NCBI GenBank assembly: GCA_963745835.1
Contig: CAVUZH010000018.1
Coordinates: forward strand, 192,001-256,000
Direction of reading: 5' to 3'
Source of the DNA: an uncultured delta proteobacterium
GTDB lineage: Bacteria > Desulfobacterota > Binatia > UBA9968
Length of the DNA: 64,000 bases
Each line of letters begins with the position of its first letter. Positions within the stretch are counted from its first letter, which is position 1. Position numbers and translations under genes: made by a program. Under the pieces are notes generated by a model. It saw only the letters and a program-made list of their open reading frames with translations, had not been told where the DNA came from and made no database searches. Positions 1,342-57,578 of the stretch are shown piece after piece.

Positions 1342-2625
1342 ATGGAAAAAATTTTGCTTCGTAACATCGATGCCGCCGATTCGCACACCCTGGCGGCTTA
1401 CCAAGCGCGCGGCGGTTATCGCGCCTGGGAAAAGGTCGTCCGCAGCATGAAGCCGGAGCAGTTGATCGATGAAGTGAAGGCGTCAGGACTCAGAGGCCGG
1501 GGCGGTGCCGGATTTCCCACCGGTATGAAGTGGAGTTTCGTCCCCAAAGACAATCCCAAGCCCAAGTATCTGGTTTGTAACGCCGACGAAAGCGAACCCG
1601 GCACATTCAAGGATCGATTGCTGATCGAGAAAGATCCACACGCGATCATCGAGGGGACGCTGATCGCAGCGTTCGGAATTCAATCGCATACCGCCTTTAT
1701 TTACATCCGCGGCGAAATGGCATTTGGCACTCGGGTGCTGGAACAGGCGGCAGAAGAGGTCAAGCGCGCTGGCTTCATCGGCAAGAATATTTTCGGCTCG
1801 GGCTATGACGTGGATTTGATTGTTCATCGTGGCGCAGGCGCTTATATCTGTGGCGAAGAAACCGCTATGCTTTCGTCGCTCGAAGGCGGGCGCGGCTGGC
1901 CCAAGGTTAAACCGCCGTTCCCGGCAACCCATGGCCTGTTTGGCTGTCCGACCGTGGTCAATAACGTCGAGACCCTGGCGGCGCTGCCGTGGATCATCGA
2001 TCGGGGTGCGGCGGCTTATGCGGCGATGGGCACAGAGAAGAGCAAAGGCACGAAACTCTTTAGCGTCAGCGGGCACATCAGCAAGCCGGGCGTTTACGAA
2101 GTCGAGATGGGATATCCGTTCAAGAAGTTTCTCGAAGAGGATTGCGGCGGCGTGCCCAACGGTAGAAAACTCAAGGGGGTGATTCCCGGCGGCGGTTCGA
2201 TGCCGGTTTTGCGGCCGGAAGAAATCGAAAACGTGAATCTCGACTATGAGTCGGTTCAGGCGGCAGGCAGTTTGCTCGGCTCCGGCGGCGTCATCGTCAT
2301 GGACGACTCCACTTGCATGGTCCGCGCGGCGTGGAACATTGCGCGTTTTTTCGCGCATGAATCGTGCGGGCAATGCAGTCCCTGCCGCGAGGGTTGCCAC
2401 TGGATGGAGAAAATTTTCCATCGCATCGAGCAGGGAGATGGCGACAAAGAGCGATATGGATCTCATTCTCAACGTCAGCGGCAACATTATGGGTAATACG
2501 ATCTGTCCGTTTGGCGATGCCGCCGCCATGCCGGCCGCAGCCTTTATAAAAAAATATCGGGATGAATTTGAGCAGCACATTGTCGACAGAGGCTGCACCG
2601 TAAGAAACGTTCAAGGAAGCATTGG
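1342..2625 (+). CDS. nuoF: NADH-quinone oxidoreductase subunit F (frameshift near 2445; exact stop uncertain)
   Basis: GLRGRGGAGFPTG, CNADESEPGTFKDR, YICGEETA, SCGQCSPCREG; the C-terminus (GNTICPFGDAAA) continues in the frame of ORF 2246..3766. Confidence 0.93.
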
Positions 2626-2650
2626 AAGTGTTAGTGTCAGCTCCAATGCT
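2618..2650. repeat. Short inverted repeat between nuoF and nuoG
   Basis: AGCATTGGA ... TCCAATGCT. Confidence 0.6.
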
Positions 2651-2680
2651 CCACCAAGCTTAAGGCGAAGTTTATCTTTT

Positions 2681-4271
2681 ATGGATCCAGTAAAACTTAT
2701 TATCGACGGCCAAGAGGTCAGCACCGTCAAAGGCAAGACCGTCATTCAGGCGGCGGCCGAGGTGGGGATCGCGATTCCGCATTACTGCTATCATCCCAAG
2801 CTTTCGATCGCCGGCAATTGCCGCATGTGCTTGATCGAAATCGAGAAGATGCCCAAGCTGCAGATCGCCTGCAACACCCAGGTGGCCGAGGGCATGACGG
2901 TGTTGACCCAGAGTCCCAAGGTGTTATCGGTGCGCAAGGCGGTGATGGAATTTCTTCTGATCAATCATCCGGTCGATTGCCCGATTTGCGATCAGGCGGG
3001 TGAGTGCTGGCTGCAGGACTATTACATGAAGCATGACCTGCAGGACAGCCGTTTCAGGAGCGAAAAGAGCATGACCGCAAGCGCGAGATTTTCGGTCCCA
3101 ACGTCGTTTTCGACGGCGAGCGCTGCATCAAGTGCACGCGCTGCGTGCGCTTTCTTGAGGAAATCACTCATACCGGGTGAACTGACCGTCGATAATCGCA
3201 GCGATCATTCGACGATCGCGCTATTTCCCGGCGCGGTTCTCGACAACCCACTGTCGGCCAATGTCGTCGATATCTGTCCCGTCGGCGCGCTGACCGATCG
3301 CGATTTCCGTTTCAAGGTCCGGGTCTGGTATCTGGAAAAAACACCGTCCATTTGTCCCGGTTGCAGCACCGGTTGCAATATCAGCGTTGAAGCCTATCAG
3401 AACCGCATCGCTCGTTTTAAGCCACGGGTTAATGAAGCGGTGAACAGCCACTGGCTGTGCGATGAGGGCCGATACTGTTTCTACGATTTGACCGGCGGTG
3501 AGCGTTTGACTACACCCATGATTCGCCAGGAGGGCGGGCTTGTTCCGACTACCTGGGAGATAGCCCTGCGCGCGGTGGTCAGCGGCCTGCGCTCGGCGGG
3601 TTCGCTGGCGGGAATACTCTCCGGCAGAAACACCAATGAAGAAGCCTTTTTATTCGCCAAGCTGATGAAGAAGCTTTCACCCGCTGCCGGATCTGGAAGT
3701 GTTCTATCAAGAGCGCGAGCTGACCGAAGTGGAAAAGATCCTTATGAGCCCGGATCGTTCGCCTAATTTCCGCGGCGCCGCCGAGATGGGCGTCAGCTCC
3801 AATGGCGGCTTCGAACCTTTGATGCAGAAGCTGGTCGCGGGAAATTATGGCGGCGCCTACGTAGTCGGCGAAGATCTAACGGCCGCAAACGACAATCAAT
3901 CGGAGCTGCGCGCCGCCTTGGGCAAATTATCTTTTCTGGTGGTGCAGGATATCCGCCTTACGGAAACCGCCAAGGCCGCCCATGTGGTTTTGCCTTCAAC
4001 CCACTTCGGTGAAAAAGAAGGAACTTACACCAATCGGAAAGGGCGCGTGCAAAAGCTTAACGCCGCGCTGGTCGCGCCGGAAGGCGCGCTGCAAGATTGC
4101 GAAATCTTCATCCGCTTGCTGGAGTCGGCCGGTGAGAGAGCATCTTACTCGACAGCAGAAGAGATCTTTCAGGCCTTGTCACAGGAAATTCCCTCCTATC
4201 GAGGACTCAATTACGATGTCATCGGCGATCAGGGGATTCAGTTGGGGAGTGGTGGTGCGGACCCGTCATGA
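2681..4271 (+). CDS. nuoG: NADH-quinone oxidoreductase subunit G, short type (~530 aa; several frameshifts)
   Basis: MDPVKLIIDG, YCYHPKLSIAGNCRMC, NHPVDCPICDQAGEC, CPVGAL, CPGCSTGC..WLCDEGR; the C-terminal EKEGTYTN is in ORF 3699..4271. Confidence 0.9.
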
Positions 4272-11113: not shown

Positions 11114-11949
11114 TTGCCGGTTTTGAAGAAGCCGATCACGACCGGTACCTCTGAGGTGCCGCTGATAAACTCTTCATGGCTCCTGGTCTTGATGTAAAGC
11201 TGAGCTGATCCGCCGCCGTCTAGATTCAACAATTCCGTCGTCTCCAGTTGCCATTCCGGTCGGGAAAACAGTTCTTGCAGTTCGGCAAAACTCAACCCGC
11301 CAAGAACGGTATCGGTAACGCCGACGATAAGACGCTGCTGCTTGTCCATGCCGATTACCGCGCGCCGGCTGTATCGGCCCGCGCCCGGGATACTTGGCAC
11401 GGCCGCCCCCTGCTTCAATAGCAGCGGTCCGCTCTGAATCCCTTCCTGCGCATCGGTGAGTTGAAACTCGTCACGATGGACAATGAACGGCGTCGAATCC
11501 TGCACGCCAAAGACGCCGGTATAGAGAGCGTGTTTAGAAACGCTGCGATTGATCTCCTGGTTCGCCGTCTTCAGGAAGGCCAGAGGCTTGCCTTTCTCGT
11601 CGAAGTAGTTGGCGTTGATGGTGGCCACGGCCCCGCTTCGCTGGGCCAGCGTTTTCGCATCGGCGCTCTTTAGCTGAAATTGGGCACTGCTGATGATGCG
11701 CGCTAAAACCCGCTGACGGCCAAAGCGGACAAGGTTTAAATCAAACGAATAGCTCGGGTCAGAACGCTCGAGGGTCATTTTGCGGTGTTCAATGCCGGAG
11801 TCGAGAAGTTTCCAATCGCCGGGCTTGCGCACCGCCAGGGTGGAGCTCACCTTCGGTTTGGCTGCCGGCGCGGGTGCTTGTGCGGAAGTGAAAGTTGCAG
11901 CCAGCGTGAGCGACGAGAGCATCAGCAAGGAAAACGAGCGAAGCATCAC
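11110..11949 (-). CDS. Exported phosphodiester glycosidase (NAGPA-like) family protein
   Basis: Signal peptide; INANYFD, QSGPLL, RRAVIG and LNLDGGGS motifs. Confidence 0.85.
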   Translation of the reverse strand: MMLRSFSLLMLSSLTLAATFTSAQAPAPAAKPKVSSTLAVRKPGDWKLLDSGIEHRKMTLERSDPSYSFDLNLVRFGRQRVLARIISSAQFQLKSADAKTLAQRSGAVATINANYFDEKGKPLAFLKTANQEINRSVSKHALYTGVFGVQDSTPFIVHRDEFQLTDAQEGIQSGPLLLKQGAAVPSIPGAGRYSRRAVIGMDKQQRLIVGVTDTVLGGLSFAELQELFSRPEWQLETTELLNLDGGGSAQLYIKTRSHEEFISGTSEVPVVIGFFKTGN

Positions 11950-12069
11950 GTTCCGTCGAGTGTAGCAGAACCAATACGGTGAGGAAAGCGAAGAATATCG
12001 AGTTGCGGCTCGGCGAATTTTTCTGCTAAGTAACTCGACTATCCTAGCAACGAAAGAAGGACCAACAAT

Positions 12070-12288
12070 ATGCGAACGGCGTTAATCACCGGGATGGTGC
12101 TCGCCCTTGGAATCGGACTATCCGCTTGCGGCAAAGATGATAAGGACAGTGCAACGCGCGACGCAGAAATTAAGAAGGCGCTTCAGGAAGGATCGCAACG
12201 AGAGAAACAGATGTATGAAGGAATGCAGAAAGGTGTCGAAAATCTGGAGAAGCAGTCGTCACCGCAAAAGCAAGAGAAGACTCAATAA
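12070..12288 (+). CDS. Small lipoprotein, hypothetical
   Basis: RBS AAGGA; lipobox LSAC; charged helical tail. Confidence 0.75.
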   Translation: MRTALITGMVLALGIGLSACGKDDKDSATRDAEIKKALQEGSQREKQMYEGMQKGVENLEKQSSPQKQEKTQ

Positions 12289-12496
12289 CTAGGCTTGCTG
12301 ATCATTCGCCTTCGGTTTCTTGCGTTTTGCTGCGACGGGACATCCTTAAAATATCGTCAGTAAAACGTCGAAATGGAATGTCACCGAGCAGGTACGGAAG
12401 AGTCTCTGATTGCAATTGCAGGGAATATTTCAAAGGGCCAGCACGATTTGCATCAGTTGAGCGGAAACTTGCAACAAGATACGCTAACGGGCTGGA

Positions 12497-51229: not shown

Positions 51230-53632
51230 ATGGCAAAAGCAAAAAAAACCGGACGCGAAGTACACCCTCACCTGACCATACTAGAAGATATCAGCACGCT
51301 GATCACCCATTCTCACGATCTCCAAGACACCTTACAAAATATCGTTACAACCGTTCGCGACCGAATGGAGGCCGAGGTCTGTTCGATTTACATCCTCGAC
51401 CCGCAAAAGAAGCGCCTGACCTTGCGGGCAACCATGGGTTTAGATCCGGAATCCATCGGTAAAGTGTCGATGGCGATAGGGGAAGGGTTAACCGGTCTGG
51501 TGATCGAGCGCATGGAGCCGGTCATGGTAGTGGATGCGCTCGCGCACCCGCGCTACAGGTATTTCCCGGAAACCGGCGAAGAACGTTTTCACTCTTTCCT
51601 AGGCGTGCCGCTGTTCAACAACAAATCGCCGCTTGGCGTGCTTGTCGTTCAAACCTCGCGCCGGCGCCAATTCTCACGCGATGAAATCCGCTTGTTGATC
51701 ACCATCTCGGCTCAGGCTGCGAGTATTATCGTTCAAGCCCAGCTGGTGGAATCATTGCGCAACAAGGAACGCGAGCGCAAAGAATATCAGAAACGCATGG
51801 TCGATGCGCTGCGCAAGCTGCGCTCTTACGAGGGTCGCCGCCGCGAGAAGACATCGAAGAAAACGTCGCACAAGTGGCGCGGCCGTTTGGTTGGGCTTGC
51901 GGCATCGCCCGGATTTGGTCGGGGAAGGGCATTTGTTTTGAACCCGCGCATGGAACTCAGTGCGATTGAGAAAAAACGCGCTCGCAATCCGCAACGTGAA
52001 ATTGAAAGATTTCGCGGCGCGGTGGAGCGGGGCATCGAGCAAATAAACGTCGTCAAACAGAGAATGAGCAATCTGATCTCACGCGAGGAGGGCGCTATCT
52101 TCGATGTTTACCGGTTGATCCTCGAGGACCCGGCCATTATCCAGCAGATTGAAGCGCAAATCCGCAAAGAAAATTACGTTGCAGAATACGCCGTGCGGCT
52201 CGTCTTTGAGCAGTATTTAAGCTCGATATCGCAAATCCAAGACGAATATTTGAGAGAGCGAACCGGGGATGTTAAAGACGCGGCGCAGAGACTGTTAGAA
52301 AACCTTGCCGGGACACCCGATCAGCACATCGCCGTGCCGAGTGATGCGGTGCTGGTGGCTGAAGATCTTTCGCCCGCGGATCTGAGCATGCTTGAAGGCG
52401 ATCACTTTCGGGGCATCGTCCTGGCAACCGGCGGGGTAACGACGCATGCGTCAATTTTAGCCAAGTCGTTTGAGATTCCCAGTGTGGTCGCGGTCGAAGG
52501 GCTGATGGACATCGTGCATCAGGGAGATGCCGTCATCGTCGATGGCAATTCCGGTGTGCTTTACGTCAATCCGAATCCGGAAGTTGCCCGCGAATACGAT
52601 CGGCTCGAGCGCGACTATGCAGCGCTTAACCGCGAGCTCGAAGAATTGAAGGACGAGCCTGCCGAAACCATCGACGGTCACAGAGTTTCGCTCTACGCAA
52701 ACATCGGTCTCTTGAGCGATATTGCCTTCGCTCATCTTCATGGCGCCCAGGGGGTGGGCCTCTATCGAACCGAAATTCCGTTCTTAGCCCATCGCGATTT
52801 TCCCAGCGAAGAGGAACAGTACTCCTTATATAAGCGTGTGATCGAAGGCATGGCTGGCAAACCAGTAACGGTTCGGACCTTAGACATAGGCGCCGACAAG
52901 TATCCCTCCTATATGCGCAGCACCAAGGTGGAGCCGAATCCGTTTCTCGGTTGGCGCTCCATTCGAATCTCGCTCGACGTCGAAGAGATCTTTAAAACGC
53001 AGCTTCGTGCGATCCTGCGAGCAGGAACATTGGGGCGAGTTCGGCTTCTCATCCCGATGATCTCCAGCCTGGAAGAAGTCCTCAAAGTCAAGGAATTGTT
53101 GGCCGAGGCCAAAGATGAGCTGCAGCGAGAGTCCACTCCCTTCGACCTCAACATGGAGTTGGGGATCATGGTGGAAGTTCCGGCGGCGGTTCAACTCGCT
53201 GAGCGACTGCTGCGCGAAGTCGATTTTTTGAGCATTGGCACTAACGATTTGATCCAATACATCCTTGCGGTCGATCGCAGCAACCGCAAAGTGGCAAATC
53301 TTTATGAGCCGCTTCATCCCGCTGTTCTGGCTGCGCTTTACTCCACGATTCAGGCGGGAAAAAGAGACGGTAAAAGAGTCGGCATGTGCGGCGAGATGGC
53401 CGGCGATCCGATTTATGCGCTTGTGCTGCTCGGCATGGGTTTAGAAGAATTCAGTATGGGTTCGCTGTTCGTGCCTGTGGTTAAAAAAACCATCCGTTCG
53501 GTCACCTACGAAGCCGCCAAATCAATGGCGCGAATCGTTCTCGAGATGGATACCGCTGCCGAAATTAAGCGGTACTTGTTCGAGCGGATGCGAGAGCTGG
53601 GTATGGTCGAATTGATGGAGATGTATCATTAA
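51230..53632 (+). CDS. ptsP: GAF-domain PEP-protein phosphotransferase (EI-Ntr)
   Basis: N-terminal GAF (VCSIY, GEGLTG, FLGVP), TTHASILAK phospho-His, GVGLYRTE, RTLDIGADK, SIGTNDLIQY, MCGEMAG. Confidence 0.95.
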   Translation: MAKAKKTGREVHPHLTILEDISTLITHSHDLQDTLQNIVTTVRDRMEAEVCSIYILDPQKKRLTLRATMGLDPESIGKVSMAIGEGLTGLVIERMEPVMVVDALAHPRYRYFPETGEERFHSFLGVPLFNNKSPLGVLVVQTSRRRQFSRDEIRLLITISAQAASIIVQAQLVESLRNKERERKEYQKRMVDALRKLRSYEGRRREKTSKKTSHKWRGRLVGLAASPGFGRGRAFVLNPRMELSAIEKKRARNPQREIERFRGAVERGIEQINVVKQRMSNLISREEGAIFDVYRLILEDPAIIQQIEAQIRKENYVAEYAVRLVFEQYLSSISQIQDEYLRERTGDVKDAAQRLLENLAGTPDQHIAVPSDAVLVAEDLSPADLSMLEGDHFRGIVLATGGVTTHASILAKSFEIPSVVAVEGLMDIVHQGDAVIVDGNSGVLYVNPNPEVAREYDRLERDYAALNRELEELKDEPAETIDGHRVSLYANIGLLSDIAFAHLHGAQGVGLYRTEIPFLAHRDFPSEEEQYSLYKRVIEGMAGKPVTVRTLDIGADKYPSYMRSTKVEPNPFLGWRSIRISLDVEEIFKTQLRAILRAGTLGRVRLLIPMISSLEEVLKVKELLAEAKDELQRESTPFDLNMELGIMVEVPAAVQLAERLLREVDFLSIGTNDLIQYILAVDRSNRKVANLYEPLHPAVLAALYSTIQAGKRDGKRVGMCGEMAGDPIYALVLLGMGLEEFSMGSLFVPVVKKTIRSVTYEAAKSMARIVLEMDTAAEIKRYLFERMRELGMVELMEMYH

Positions 53633-53672
53633 GTAGAGCTGGCTGGTGGGCCTAAATTTCCTTTGGATGGGG

Positions 53673-53723
53673 TTGATTTAGACGATGACGTGAGTTAAAT
53701 TTAATTTCGAACGATCGTTCGAA
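53673..53723 (+). promoter_or_regulatory. Sigma70 promoter with a perfect 18-bp palindromic operator over the predicted +1
   Basis: TTGATT(53673)-17 bp-TAAATT(53696); TTCGAACGATCGTTCGAA at 53706-53723. Confidence 0.72.
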
Positions 53724-53749
53724 CAGGCTCCTTCCGAAAGGATTAAACC

Positions 53750-54856
53750 ATGCAGAAAATCGCAAATTTCGATGATTGGATCGATTACTTCCGTGTCTGG
53801 CAAAAAGATATCGGCTATGACCCGGCACTGTTAGGCGATTACAAGTTTGAAACCAAGCTGGGAGAACTGCACAGCTCGGAGATTGAATTTGGCGACTTCA
53901 AGGGCCAACCGAAATGGCAACGAATCGGGCAAATACCGAATCAGTCGATTCGCGATGCGCTGATGAATTTGATCGTCTATCAGGGCGATACCGAATTCGC
54001 TTCGGTGGAACAGCAAAAAAACCTGCTCGACACCGCGCCCACGGAATACGACCGTAAAGCCCTGACCCGTGTAAACAGCGAAGAAATGCGCCACGGCTGG
54101 CAGATGTGTTACCTGCTCGTCAATTACTTCGGTGATTCAGGAAAATTGGAGGCGCGTAAACTGCTCGAGCGAAGAGCTTTCCGCGGTGACCGGCTACTGG
54201 GATCTTTCAATGCCCCGGTGAAAAACTGGCTGGACTTCTTTACCTATACGGAATTTGTCGATCGAGACGGCAAGTATCAGCTGACCATGCTAAGCCATTC
54301 GGCCTTTGCGCCGCTGGCTGAGAGCGTCACCGCAATGCTCAAGGAAGAGCACTTTCACATGTTTACAGGTCACACCGGACTCACCCGTGTGCTTCGCGCC
54401 GGGCAAATTCCGGTTGCCATCGTGCAAAAATATTTCAACAAATGGTTGTCCACCGCTTATGATCTATTTGGGACCGATCATTCATCCTCTGCCAACTGGT
54501 CGTATGTCTGGGGTCTGAAGGGAAGATACGATGAACATGAAGCGACGGTGGCGGCGGACAAGGACCGATTGAACGATTTGGCCCGCGACCATTACATGGC
54601 GGAAAGCTCAAAACTAATCGATCAGCTGAACCAGCTTATTCCGGAAGGACAGCCCAAGCTTTCAGCGCCGGATTTGAAATTCAACCGCTCCATCGGTGAG
54701 CACGTCGGTAAAACTTTCAGCGTTACCGGTGAACTCTTGTCGCCGGAGGCATACAAGAAGCACTTAACCGAAGCCTTGCCGACAGCGGAAGACGAGCAAC
54801 TACTCAACGACATCATGAAAGGCAAGGAGTGGGTTTCGCAGATTCAAATGAACTAA
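53750..54856 (+). CDS. BoxB/PaaA-like ferritin-fold diiron aryl-CoA epoxidase homolog (short, 368 aa)
   Basis: LIVYQGDTEFASVEQQ, EEMRHGW, DRDGKYQL, EEHFHMF correspond to BoxB IVTQGDTEPASVEQQ, EEGRH, DRDGKFQL, EEAHHMF. Confidence 0.85.
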   Translation: MQKIANFDDWIDYFRVWQKDIGYDPALLGDYKFETKLGELHSSEIEFGDFKGQPKWQRIGQIPNQSIRDALMNLIVYQGDTEFASVEQQKNLLDTAPTEYDRKALTRVNSEEMRHGWQMCYLLVNYFGDSGKLEARKLLERRAFRGDRLLGSFNAPVKNWLDFFTYTEFVDRDGKYQLTMLSHSAFAPLAESVTAMLKEEHFHMFTGHTGLTRVLRAGQIPVAIVQKYFNKWLSTAYDLFGTDHSSSANWSYVWGLKGRYDEHEATVAADKDRLNDLARDHYMAESSKLIDQLNQLIPEGQPKLSAPDLKFNRSIGEHVGKTFSVTGELLSPEAYKKHLTEALPTAEDEQLLNDIMKGKEWVSQIQMN

Positions 54857-54915
54857 GCGGATGCATTCCACCCTGGGTTTGATGCTGCCGCCAGTTGCAA
54901 CATAAGGAGGGAGCA

Positions 54916-55239
54916 GTGAAGCGGATGTGTCTCGTCTGTCAGAATATCGATTGTAAATCTCGGGGTTCCGAGCAGCTGATGGGCGAGCTCGAGAAGCGGG
55001 TTGCGGCGAAAGGGTTGAATGATGTCGAGGTAAAGCCCTACATGTGCTTCGGCGCATGCCAAGAGGGTCCCAACATCGTTCTTTACCCTGAAAAAAGCTG
55101 GTATGCGAATGTCAAAGTCGACGACTTGGACGAGATCACTGAACACATTGCCGGCGGACCTCACGTCAAACGCTTGGACACCATCGATGCTTCGCTCAAA
55201 GAACTGATTTACCAACTTCTAGATACGGGGGTCGTTTAA
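54916..55239 (+). CDS. Thioredoxin-like [2Fe-2S] ferredoxin (NuoE C-terminal domain-like)
   Basis: RBS AAGGAGG with GTG start; VCQNIDC..MCFGACQEGP..WY. Confidence 0.88.
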   Translation: MKRMCLVCQNIDCKSRGSEQLMGELEKRVAAKGLNDVEVKPYMCFGACQEGPNIVLYPEKSWYANVKVDDLDEITEHIAGGPHVKRLDTIDASLKELIYQLLDTGVV

Positions 55240-55242
55240 CCG

Positions 55243-56502
55243 ATGGAAGGCATTCTTTTCCCCCATGGAATCCCTGAGGGTCGAGAAGAATTAAGTGATT
55301 ACCGCGGCCGCGGTGGCTATGAGGCATTAGCTCGTGCGATCAGGATGCCGGCCGAGGATATCGTCAAGCAAGTCTCTGACGCGGGGCTCCGCGGCAGGGG
55401 CGGCGCGGGATTCCCCACCGGCAAAAAATGGGAGCTTACTCGCGAGGCGCCAGAGCAAACCCGTTATCTCATCCTGAACGGTGGAGAAGATGAACCCGGC
55501 AGCAAAAAAGATCGCGTGCTGATGGAGAATGTTCCTCATCTGGTGATTGAGGGCGTGATCCTATCCGCTTACGCGATTGGCGCGGAGAAAGCATATCTTT
55601 ACATCAATGCTCAGTACGAGACCGCGATTAAAAGAATTGCCGACGCTTTGTCTGAAGCAAAGAGTGAGGCCTATTGGGGTGAAAATATTCTCGGCAGCAG
55701 TTTCAGCCTAGATATTGAAATTGTCCCAGCGCCGCACAACTATGTGGCCGGCGAGGATACGGCGGTCATCGAGGTCATCGAAGGTAAGAAAGCTTGGCCC
55801 AGGGAGAAGCCGCCGTTCCCGGTAACGGTAGGACTCTTTGGCAAACCGACGTCGGTGAACAACGTTGAAACTCTCGCCAACGTCGCTCCGATTCTTTTGC
55901 ATGGCGCCGACTGGTATCGAAAATTTGGCACCGCCGAAAGCCCCGGGACCATGATCTTTGCTCTCGACGAAGACGTGAACCGGCCCGGCGTTTATGAGCT
56001 AGAGTTCGGCACGCCGCTGCGTTATCTGATCGAAGAGTGCGGCGGCGGCTTGAAGAGTGGTAAAAAGATCAAAGCGGTTATGCCAGCCTCGCCCTCGTGC
56101 GCCTTTCTACCGCCGGAGAAAATCGACACGCCGCTTGACCACAACTCTATGCGCGAGGCCGGCGCCGGCATTGGTTGCGGCGTTATCCGCCTGGTCGGCG
56201 AAGGCGAATGTATCGTTGAAGAAGTCCTTGGCATCGCCGAATTTTTCGCCACCGAGTCCTGCGGCCAGTGCCCGGCGTGCCGCATGGAAACCAGTACGCT
56301 AGCGATGATGATGAAGAAAGTGCAGCAAGGGCAGGGCGGCAAACCGATCCTTGAACAGTTTGGCAAGATTTTGGCCTTCAACAAAGGCAAAGGATTTTGT
56401 AATCTGATCAATATGCCCGGTCCGCCGATTGAAAGCGCGCTCAAACTCTTTCCCGGTGATTTCGAAGCCCACCTGACTACCGGGAAATGCCCGGTAAACT
56501 AG
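55243..56502 (+). CDS. Stand-alone NuoF-like FMN/[4Fe-4S] NAD(P)H dehydrogenase subunit
   Basis: GLRGRGGAGFPTG, NGGEDEPGSKKDR, YVAGEDTA, VNNVETLAN, ESCGQCPACR..GFC. Confidence 0.92.
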   Translation: MEGILFPHGIPEGREELSDYRGRGGYEALARAIRMPAEDIVKQVSDAGLRGRGGAGFPTGKKWELTREAPEQTRYLILNGGEDEPGSKKDRVLMENVPHLVIEGVILSAYAIGAEKAYLYINAQYETAIKRIADALSEAKSEAYWGENILGSSFSLDIEIVPAPHNYVAGEDTAVIEVIEGKKAWPREKPPFPVTVGLFGKPTSVNNVETLANVAPILLHGADWYRKFGTAESPGTMIFALDEDVNRPGVYELEFGTPLRYLIEECGGGLKSGKKIKAVMPASPSCAFLPPEKIDTPLDHNSMREAGAGIGCGVIRLVGEGECIVEEVLGIAEFFATESCGQCPACRMETSTLAMMMKKVQQGQGGKPILEQFGKILAFNKGKGFCNLINMPGPPIESALKLFPGDFEAHLTTGKCPVN

Positions 56503-56749: not shown

Positions 56750-57578
56750 ATGCGACCGACACCGATCAAATTACCCAACGATGCGAAAATCGCCGTCAGT
56801 TTCTTCGTCGCCTTTGAGGCGTTTGAAAAATATTCGCAATATCGCGAAGGCGGAGAGAAACCTGATTTCGCATCTCTCGCTTACGGCGAATACGGCGGCA
56901 AAGCCGGCATCTGGCGGATCATGGATGTATTGGCGCGTAACCAGGTTAAAGGGACAATCGATACTAACGGCCGTATTGCCGAGGATTTTCCCGATGCGTT
57001 GAAAGAGCTTCACGCCGGCGGTCATGAGATCGTCGGTCATGGTTGGGTCAATGACACTTCTCTTATTTCGCTGGAGCCGGCTAGGGAAAAAGAGCTGATC
57101 AAGCGCACGCTCGACAGCCTTGCCTCAGTCACGGGTAATCGACCTGTGGGCTGGGTCAGCCCCGGCCATCGAATCAACGAATATACCTTCGGGCATTTCG
57201 TTGATGAGGGAATAATCTGGACCGGCGACTTACCCGGGACCCGACATTCCCCAGCATCGGATGGTCAACGGCAAACCATTGGTGATCATGCCGCGGCTCG
57301 ATTACGCCAACGATCTTTCGCTCATCTTTCGCGCCAAGAATCCCGCGCGGGTCTATTTTGAAAGCTTCAAGAGCGCTTTTGATCTGTTGTATGCGGAGGG
57401 GCAGGCCGGCTCGCCCAAGCTCATCGATGCGCTCGTGCACGCCCACATCGGTGGCAGAGCCAATATCATCGGCGTATTCGAGGAGTGCATCCGTTACGCC
57501 AAGGGGTTCAAGGACGTGTGGTTCTGTACCAAGGGTGAAATAGCGAGCTGGTATCTGGACAATTACGTACGCAAGTAA
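56750..57578 (+). CDS. Polysaccharide deacetylase family (PuuE-like); frameshift near 57235
   Basis: EYGGKAGIWRI, GHEIVGHG, RPVGWVSPG; C-terminal ND..ALVHAHIGGR..DVWF in ORF 57261..57578. Confidence 0.87.

Follow-up and report, generated by a model that had tools for sequence, protein, structure and literature searches.

A candidate three-component aryl-CoA oxygenase in an uncultured member of the Binatia, with a predicted reductase pair of HydB/NfnB type

The characterized diiron epoxidases of coenzyme A (CoA) esters, BoxAB and PaaABCDE, take their electrons from FNR-type reductases. Here, we describe three adjacent genes that may have solved electron delivery in another way, found in a 64,000-nucleotide (nt) stretch of DNA (hereafter, the window) from an uncultured soil delta proteobacterium of the class Binatia (GenBank assembly GCA_963745835.1, contig CAVUZH010000018.1, positions 192,001 to 256,000). 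We favor, at a probability of about 0.58, the reading that this trio forms a repressor-controlled, three-component aryl-CoA oxygenase, most likely acting on benzoyl-CoA or a close analogue, and we infer that electrons pass from NAD(P)H through FMN, a [4Fe-4S] cluster and a [2Fe-2S] cluster to a diiron center. This reading draws on the conservation of the trio as a unit, a BoxB-like catalytic core, an operator held in common with aryl-CoA catabolic gene clusters, the presence of benzoate-CoA ligases and a matching TetR-family regulator in the genome, a distribution complementary to that of canonical BoxB, and contigs from soil RNA libraries. The features of the locus, in window coordinates, are as follows.

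53673..53678, + strand: -35-like hexamer TTGATT, kept as TTGAYTT in most of 30 related upstream regions
53696..53701, + strand: -10-like hexamer TAAATT, 17 nt past the -35-like site; TATAAA/TATAAT-like at the same spacing in relatives
53706..53723, strand not applicable: operator-like perfect 18-bp palindrome TTCGAACGATCGTTCGAA, directly 3' of the -10-like site
53750..54856, + strand: gene for the short BoxB-like diiron oxygenase, "type A", 368 amino acids (aa)
54916..55239, + strand: gene for the thioredoxin-like [2Fe-2S] ferredoxin, 107 aa from GTG 54916
55243..56502, + strand: gene for the NuoF-like flavoprotein, 419 aa, with FMN/NAD(P)H, SLBB and [4Fe-4S] domains

The original prediction had placed three co-oriented genes behind a single promoter/operator, an arrangement borne out by the open reading frames (ORFs) on the + strand and by the conservation of both the unit and its upstream region. 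Gaps of 59 nt and 3 nt separate the diiron gene from the ferredoxin gene and the ferredoxin stop from the flavoprotein gene, respectively. The ferredoxin ORF was called at 54895-55239; the true start is likely the GTG at 54916, which lies downstream of the putative ribosome site GGAGGGAG and yields a protein of 107 aa, the same length as its relatives. In the scheme that we propose, the NuoF-like flavoprotein would take hydride from NAD(P)H on its FMN, its [4Fe-4S] cluster would hand single electrons to the small ferredoxin, and the ferredoxin would reduce the diiron center of the short BoxB, which would then activate O2 and oxygenate (epoxidize) the ring of a CoA ester. A TetR-family, PaaR-like repressor would occupy the palindrome, overlapping the transcription start, until released by an acyl-CoA, and enzymes from unlinked crotonase, aldehyde dehydrogenase and paaF/G/H/J-like genes, instead of BoxC, would process the product.

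The catalytic core carries much of the argument. All four BoxB-type iron-ligand motifs named in the original prediction (GDTE, EEMRH, DRD and EEHFH) are present in the translation of the diiron gene, as QGDTE, EEMRH, DRDG and EEHFH, and the six ligands (E82, E112, H115, D171, E200 and H203) do not vary across the 47 sequences aligned. A phmmer search matched BoxB (3PER) at E 1.2e-51, and the protein scores 48.9 bits against the PaaA/PaaC family model PF05138 (cut-off 28.5). An AlphaFold2 model built on the 47 sequences, with a mean predicted local distance difference test (pLDDT) value of 94.2, has the predicted fold of BoxB: Foldseek aligned it with 3PM5_A at E 4e-25 and a query-normalized template modeling (TM) score of 0.90 (0.88-0.90 for 3PM5/3Q1G), and the BoxB structures ranked above SSO1313 (4MUD) and PaaA. 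Compared with the BoxAB benzoyl-CoA 2,3-epoxidase of Azoarcus/Aromatoleum evansii (3PER, 3PM5, 3Q1G), the modeled fold is alike over the whole of the short protein at 30-32% identity, and by analogy the predicted reaction type is alike as well. According to the available text of PMC5489048, the diiron ligands of BoxB are Glu120, Glu150, His153, Asp211, Glu240 and His243, all six with counterparts here, and the residues that orient or hold benzoyl-CoA are Gln116, Thr119, Ser123, Phe193, Phe203/206 and Thr210. By that account, Gln78 (the counterpart of the thioester-binding Gln), Thr81, Ser85 and Phe153 of the short protein match BoxB Gln116, Thr119, Ser123 and Phe193, and the Phe203 equivalent is also retained. 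The likeness to the phenylacetyl-CoA 1,2-epoxidase PaaABC(D)E is more general, comprising membership of PF05138 and the multicomponent diiron CoA-ester epoxidase type, together with a PaaR-like operator and paaF/G/H/J-like genes beside a TetR ortholog as described below; in contrast, the diiron protein reaches only 42.8 bits with the PaaA model TIGR02156 (cut-off 280), and the TM score of its model to PaaA is 0.49-0.55. In a quick maximum-likelihood tree with Shimodaira-Hasegawa-like approximate likelihood ratio test (SH-aLRT) support, in which the long branches P0154, P0188, P0247, P0137 and P0135 are unreliable, 22 trio-linked proteins form one group (SH-aLRT 100), and all 44 short forms stand apart from three representatives of BoxB length (SH-aLRT 99).

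The second and third genes of the trio encode a pair of proteins whose composition departs from that of BoxA, the reductase partner of BoxB. BoxA is an FAD/[4Fe-4S] protein that uses NADPH, whereas the trio reductase would consist of a NuoF-type FMN/[4Fe-4S] flavoprotein plus a separate [2Fe-2S] ferredoxin. The ferredoxin matches PF01257 (31.6 bits, cut-off 24.8) at profile positions 65-143 of 145 only, i.e. the C-terminal half, scores 32.5 bits against the NuoE model TIGR01958 (cut-off 142.4; positions 67-145 of 148), and has no counterpart of the N-terminal (helical) domain of NuoE. Its best match in the PDB is the N-terminal thioredoxin-like [2Fe-2S] domain of HydB (7Q4V_B, residues 7-92, E 2.9e-12), followed by free [2Fe-2S] ferredoxins (1F37/1M2A), and no NuoE/Nqo2 chain occurs among its PDB matches at E <= 0.01. 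Four cysteines (Cys8, Cys13, Cys44 and Cys48) and an LLDxG tail at the C terminus are shared without exception by all 18 aligned ferredoxins, which include the copy of an acidobacterial-type locus (L064, below) and an orphan paralog of the present genome; the CX4C...CX3C pattern is what we take to be the ligand spacing of a thioredoxin-like [2Fe-2S] cluster.

The flavoprotein matches PF01512 (153.7 bits), PF10589 (58.5 bits) and PF10531, and combines an FMN/NADH domain with a [4Fe-4S] (N3) domain, its translation containing CGQCPAC and a later Cys. Its score with the NuoF model TIGR01959 is 414.6 bits (cut-off 558.65), and it possesses neither the canonical NuoF motifs nor a nuo-operon setting. 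The nucleotide-site motifs are GGEDEPG and YVAGED, as compared with ADESEPG and YICGEE in the window's ordinary nuoF (1342-2496), and all 26 orthologs retain the altered forms, NGGEDEPG and YVAGEDT, which confirms the earlier description of a NuoF paralog with altered nucleotide-site motifs. The best PDB relatives, separated by a small margin, are NfnB (355.8 bits), HydB (336-340), Thermus Nqo1 (331.9) and other NuoF proteins (~318-325). Over its entire length, the flavoprotein can be aligned with the FMN/[4Fe-4S] core of the flavin subunits of NuoF-family hydrogenases and Nfn enzymes (9N5U_B, 7P5H_B, 7Q4V_B, 7T2R_B), and its alignment to residues 129-531 of the 602 of NfnB (9N5U_B) means that the C-terminal 2x[4Fe-4S] domain is lacking. 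The first two modules of such subunits are present in the HydB order, but as two genes, and hydrogenase, HydC, Nfn and Nuo partner genes are not adjacent, as judged from the ORFs of the window and a family scan. Because the order of the ferredoxin and flavoprotein is that of the HydB domains, the sequences suggest that the pair answers less to NuoE plus NuoF than to a HydB/NfnB-type subunit divided in two and trimmed at its C terminus. The phrase "complex-I-type NuoE/NuoF" in the original prediction was imprecise, given the missing NuoE domain and the HydB best match of the ferredoxin and the slightly better scores of the flavoprotein with NfnB/HydB cores than with Nqo1/NuoF. Two kinds of apparent fusion were discarded: ferredoxin fusion (Rosetta-stone) forms comprised only six single-member proteins of partial coverage that look like gene-call artefacts, and the long open frames spanning the ferredoxin and flavoprotein genes in some loci are out-of-frame extensions, the frames having been worked out by hand.

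The trio is conserved as a unit. A scan of species-representative genomes returned at least 592 stretches encoding relatives of the diiron protein, of which the best 80 loci (L001-L080) were examined. Among L001-L030 (69-91% identity, most of them bearing a Binatia or "delta proteobacterium" label), both partners lie downstream of the diiron gene in 28 of the 28 loci with enough downstream DNA; the two left out are L006, which ends at the diiron gene, and L027, which ends after the ferredoxin gene. The recurrence of the arrangement in every locus with room is more than chance would give, and it upholds the expectation, set beforehand, that the trio would be found in other genomes. A phylum-level survey (4 of 201 genomes) contained few relatives, and a class-level sample was used instead. 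There, type A proteins (>=69% identity) occur in 15 of 151 genomes, all within three families of the window's own order, and all 15 carry a flavoprotein ortholog (60-81% identical) 0.35-0.5 kb downstream on the same strand. Flavoprotein orthologs were detected in 18 of the 151 genomes, with none in the 132 outside the three type A families.

The same class sample reveals a complementary distribution. Short and long forms of BoxB do not co-occur in its genomes: 41 genomes of other families yielded only matches of 39-51% identity, for the most part within open frames of some 470-560 aa, and three yielded a match at the level of a second short form, "type B" (below). Canonical BoxB was present in all five of those 41 genomes that were tested (TIGR03225, 839-853 bits), and these complete genomes of a sister family (G233, G277, G285, G301 and G349; loci L104-L108) were seen to encode it in crotonase-crotonase-boxB-ligase clusters, the ligase being 50-53% identical to the ligase on contig C25 of the present genome. 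None of the five has BoxA at E <= 1e-30 or a NuoF-like ortholog (best 39-40% identity). As far as sequence comparison can tell, this pattern fits a history in which short forms took over from canonical BoxB in the window's order.

Regulatory features of the trio point toward CoA-ester catabolism. The putative promoter was assigned by comparing 30 related upstream regions by eye for hexamers, most of which show a TTGAYTT / 17-nt / TATAAT-like layout followed at once by the palindrome. The palindrome is the sole 16/16 match in the 7.28-Mb genome, with no second site above 14/16 and none in the intergenic region between the TetR and paaF-like genes; of the 30 type A loci, 27 carry it ahead of the diiron gene with at least 12 of the 14 core positions matching, and in two further genomes (G246 and G312) the sole good site is likewise at the trio. 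The same palindrome, TCGAACGAACGTTCGA, is located at or within ~130 nt upstream of the TetR gene in 13 of 14 acidobacterial loci holding that TetR. Its core within 53706-53723, CGAACGATCGTTCG, fits the consensus CNAACGNNCGTTNG, which the available portion of PMC6651687 quotes for PaaR (TTHA0973), the phenylacetyl-CoA-responsive TetR repressor of Thermus thermophilus. A further likeness to the PaaR system is that the genome's single TetR ortholog is situated beside paa-like genes; a difference is that no TetR gene adjoins the trio operon. The genome's TetR is 39-43% identical to the acidobacterial cluster TetRs. A LexA/SOS operator was also considered for the CGAAC-N4-GTTCG element within the palindrome and rejected, the genome's own lexA having a CTG-N10-CAG box instead; the looser CGAAC-N4-GTTCG-type pattern occurs 17 times in the genome against ~8 expected. 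The lexA box itself, ACTGAAAATATATTCAGT, at L090:2110-2135 upstream of lexA (G000:C14:15217-15813, G000 being the present genome), is of the CTG-N10-CAG type, from which the organism seems to use an E. coli-like SOS box.

The acidobacterial loci that share the operator offer a view of the short BoxB family in a different genetic context. Loci L031-L080 (58-65% identity, mostly Acidobacteriota) encode proteins of the same family with the same pocket signature, and their oxygenase genes are without ferredoxin and flavoprotein genes, save for L064 (Terriglobia), where a solo-type short BoxB is accompanied by the ferredoxin only, and L072, where fragments lie 1.7 kb away. The ferredoxin was not found in five of five acidobacterial genomes, weak evidence given the single-protein query. 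A subset of these loci is composed of co-oriented genes for TetR, a crotonase, a mug-like protein, a PaaG-like crotonase, the type B short BoxB and a Dch-like crotonase. In the one locus scanned for the purpose, L066, three molybdenum hydroxylase subunits follow, the large one scoring 1035.4 bits against the cut-off of 994.55 for 4-hydroxybenzoyl-CoA reductase alpha; other TetR-led clusters add an aldehyde dehydrogenase (L051) or a 3-hydroxyacyl-CoA dehydrogenase (L068). In contrast to these clusters, the present oxygenase is encoded away from crotonase and dehydrogenase genes and carries its own candidate reductase. The mug/UDG-superfamily gene is constant in the TetR-led acyl-CoA clusters (L066:4158-4745, L068:4531-5061, L051:5418-5990), an odd partner for a catabolic operon.

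Candidate pathway genes are scattered elsewhere in the genome. Genome-wide searches placed both BoxA and BoxC far below their cut-offs, the best BoxA match (on another contig) being 32.6 bits against 459.2. The original prediction had noted that boxA, boxC, paaBCE and CoA ligase genes are missing from the window. For the ligase this holds within the window, where tblastn with the genome's own CoA ligases, crotonases, thiolase, TetR and aldehyde dehydrogenase gave no match at E <= 1e-5, but not for the genome, which has two genes of the benzoate-CoA ligase family (794.3 and 587.6 bits, cut-off 375.25), one with a branched-chain-type ABC transporter and the other with an aldehyde dehydrogenase, a class II aldolase and a TRAP transporter. 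No PaaB-, PaaC- or PaaE-type partners were seen adjacent to the trio, those families having had no separate genome search. The genome does possess paaF/G/H/J-like genes: the gene for the TetR ortholog (C16:368282-368902) stands in divergent orientation to paaF-like, paaG-like, split paaH-like and 3-oxoadipyl-CoA-thiolase-like genes, which mostly fall short of equivalog cut-offs. The paaH-like 3-hydroxyacyl-CoA dehydrogenase (G000:C16) is encoded by overlapping ORFs of 288 and 249 aa (L094:10788-11654 and 11635-12384) that match the two halves of the 507-position model. On contig C3, a crotonase gene adjoins an aldehyde dehydrogenase gene (C3:23320-25902), and its product shares 60% identity with the crotonase that comes first in the acidobacterial clusters.

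Contigs from four soil RNA libraries of four studies, at least 95% alike to the present sequence, cover parts of the operon, with the flavoprotein gene represented in all four libraries and the diiron gene in three. One contig (55139-55520) spans the ferredoxin/flavoprotein junction, and no RNA contigs fall over 53400-53741 and 54882-54995.

Several observations weigh against the favored reading and must be set beside the evidence just given. The RNA contigs derive from 95-99% relatives and may reflect DNA carry-over, such that they document presence in RNA libraries and not a mapped transcript. The promoter hexamers fall below the threshold of a consensus scan (8 of 12 positions match). A tblastn search of the window with the genome's TetR (E <= 1e-5) recovered no TetR gene, and the region upstream of the genome's TetR lacks such a palindrome. 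The genome bin has an estimated contamination of 9.33%, and hence some of the unlinked pathway genes may stem from a different organism. BoxC, at best 71.7 bits against a cut-off of 712.3 and on another contig, is absent, which leaves the fate of an epoxide unaccounted for. The diiron protein itself scores 245.8 bits, in two stretches, with the BoxB model TIGR03225 (cut-off 499.1), although public sources name such proteins "benzoyl-CoA 2,3-epoxidase subunit B" despite scores below that cut-off. It is also ~100 residues shorter than BoxB (368 vs about 470), an N-terminal segment, two insertions and a C-terminal tail of the long form being missing. Every short form has Phe206 replaced by Tyr (Tyr166) and Thr210 by Val or Ile (Val/Ile170), and positions 165 (Thr165) and 168 (Glu/Gln168) also differ from canonical BoxB; with pocket changes as systematic as these, the substrate or the regiochemistry may differ. 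Finally, solo short BoxBs of ~60% identity appear to operate without this reductase, and three of the 18 genomes with a flavoprotein ortholog (G280, G296 and G336) keep the ferredoxin-flavoprotein pair where the diiron gene has been deleted.

A subset of these points converges on an alternative in which the electron chain is as proposed and the substrate is not: the short BoxB would hydroxylate, desaturate or epoxidize some other acyl-CoA (alicyclic, aliphatic, or a hydroxylated or aminated aryl-CoA), its link to benzoate being one of ancestry only. The consistent changes of F206Y, T210V/I and positions 165 and 168, the BoxB cut-off missed by half, the failure to find BoxC in the genome, and the generic nature of the crotonases of the acidobacterial clusters, which fall below every equivalog cut-off, count in favor of such a scenario. 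Yet the equivalents of Gln116, Thr119, Ser123, Phe193 and Phe203 are kept, a TetR-led cluster with a solo form (L066) holds a 4-hydroxybenzoyl-CoA reductase alpha subunit above cut-off, and the short forms and the 39-51% matches reside in different genomes, with canonical BoxB in all five tested of the latter. On balance we regard a change of substrate as unlikely, albeit a contender to be taken seriously, and retain benzoyl-CoA or a close analogue as the favored substrate.

The loss of the diiron gene in three genomes bears instead on the assignment of the reductase. Conceivably, the ferredoxin and flavoprotein together form a general NAD(P)H:ferredoxin module that chiefly serves another protein, their adjacency to the diiron gene reflecting co-regulation and not direct electron transfer; the pair looks intact in G280, G296 and G336 after loss of the diiron gene, and a second ferredoxin, an orphan 56-57% identical to the first, is encoded elsewhere in the present genome. 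We judge this improbable in view of the adjacency in all 28 loci with room and in all 15 type A genomes of the class sample, the spacing of 3 nt between the two genes of the pair, the restriction of flavoprotein orthologs in that sample to the order that has type A, the coupling of a solo-type short BoxB with the ferredoxin alone at L064, and the retention of a type B short BoxB in the three genomes that lack type A. At the pair-only loci L109, L110 and L111 (G336, G296 and G280, respectively), the short BoxB gene and its operator are both deleted; a 48-aa remnant of the diiron gene persists at L110:6049-6192, and the flanking TctA/TctC-like ORF layout at L110 matches that of relatives with the full trio.

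Two further alternatives concern the reaction. According to one, the trio would be a substrate-free, rubrerythrin-like scavenger of O2, H2O2 or NO that depends on NAD(P)H. Such a role would accord with the setting of the type B paralog among OsmC, hemerythrin, universal stress protein and DksA-like genes and with solo forms that lack a dedicated reductase, but it is hard to reconcile with an invariant CoA-thioester-binding Gln and aromatic pocket, with an operator common to acyl-CoA catabolic clusters, and with structural matches of the model that are CoA-ester oxygenases and not rubrerythrins. We consider it highly improbable, and the simple O2 reduction that the original prediction had allowed for gains no support, given regulation in common with acyl-CoA clusters. 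The other alternative runs the chemistry in reverse, an epoxy-acyl-CoA being deoxygenated to the aromatic CoA ester under low oxygen with the aid of a strong low-potential donor chain. An FMN/[4Fe-4S]/[2Fe-2S] chain is lower in potential than O2 activation needs, which counts for the reductive direction. So does a suggested epoxide deoxygenation by BoxB, mentioned in the available text of PMC5489048. However, nothing else in the genome makes the epoxide except the short BoxB forms, and no specific evidence for this direction was found; we give it the least weight of all. An oxygenase supplied with electrons by its own ferredoxin and flavoprotein is the reading that we carry forward.

The present genome encodes paralogs of all three trio proteins. 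The type B short BoxB (375 aa, 56-57% identical; G000:C14:394840-395967, L089:10841-11968) is encoded by a gene that overlaps a DksA/TraR-type zinc-finger gene (L089:11965-12336) by 4 nt and is surrounded by genes for a sigma-54 activator, OsmC, hemerythrin, another PaaA-like protein and universal stress proteins; no operator palindrome accompanies it. The pocket signature is common to types A and B, on which basis they probably act on the same substrate, though not necessarily with the regiochemistry of BoxB. The orphan ferredoxin (G000:C18:476449-476769, L093:6450-6770), with the same Cys ligands and C-terminal tail, is flanked by glyoxalase-like and CDP-diacylglycerol-pyrophosphatase-like genes, and the second short BoxB could be its client. 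A third NuoF homologue (G000:C16:116000-118600) is a 574-aa open frame with canonical ADESEPG and YICGEE motifs, whose N-terminal extension of ~160 aa could be a fused NuoE-like part.

Two neighboring regions of the window show irregular gene calls. Directly 3' of the trio, a polysaccharide-deacetylase/PuuE-like gene is divided between two overlapping ORFs, 56750-57361 (203 aa) and 57261-57578 (105 aa), and its counterpart in a relative (L002:8701-9528) is a single ORF of 275 aa; the split reflects either a frameshift in the gene or a mistake in sequencing. The ordinary nuoF ORF (1342-2496), near the window's start, is only 384 aa long with an odd tail at its end, and a 506-aa ORF in another frame (2246-3766) overlaps it by 250 nt; the nuo operon may be frameshifted or misassembled there.

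A literature search returned no description of this trio system or of the TetR-headed acidobacterial short-BoxB clusters, and no paper on a reductase of this kind, in agreement with the original view that the architecture is undescribed for a diiron aryl-CoA oxygenase. In the Binatota genome paper (PMC8262859), the terms benzoyl, benzoate, phenylacet, aromatic, boxB and diiron occur 0 times. On a broader scale, we advance a proposal whose chances we put somewhat short of even, namely, that at least two phyla of soil bacteria possess a compact BoxB lineage serving a BoxA/BoxC-independent aerobic aryl-CoA route, and that one order (of the Binatia, by the titles of the closest metagenome-assembled genome records) recruited a split HydB/NuoF-type flavoprotein and a ferredoxin as a new class of reductase. 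The family in question is large, with relatives of the short BoxB in at least 592 species genomes and 5020 protein clusters scoring at E <= 0.001, and the system is compact, consisting of three genes and one operator. If the proposal is true, the Binatia and Acidobacteriota would turn over aromatic acids in soil through an uncharacterized, BoxC-free pathway, a widespread and hitherto unrecognized route for plant-derived aromatic acids. The electron-delivery module would be new among characterized multicomponent oxygenases, and a NuoF/HydB-type flavoprotein working with a thioredoxin-like ferredoxin would represent a new solution to diiron reduction, widening the known uses of the input module of complex I and hydrogenases.

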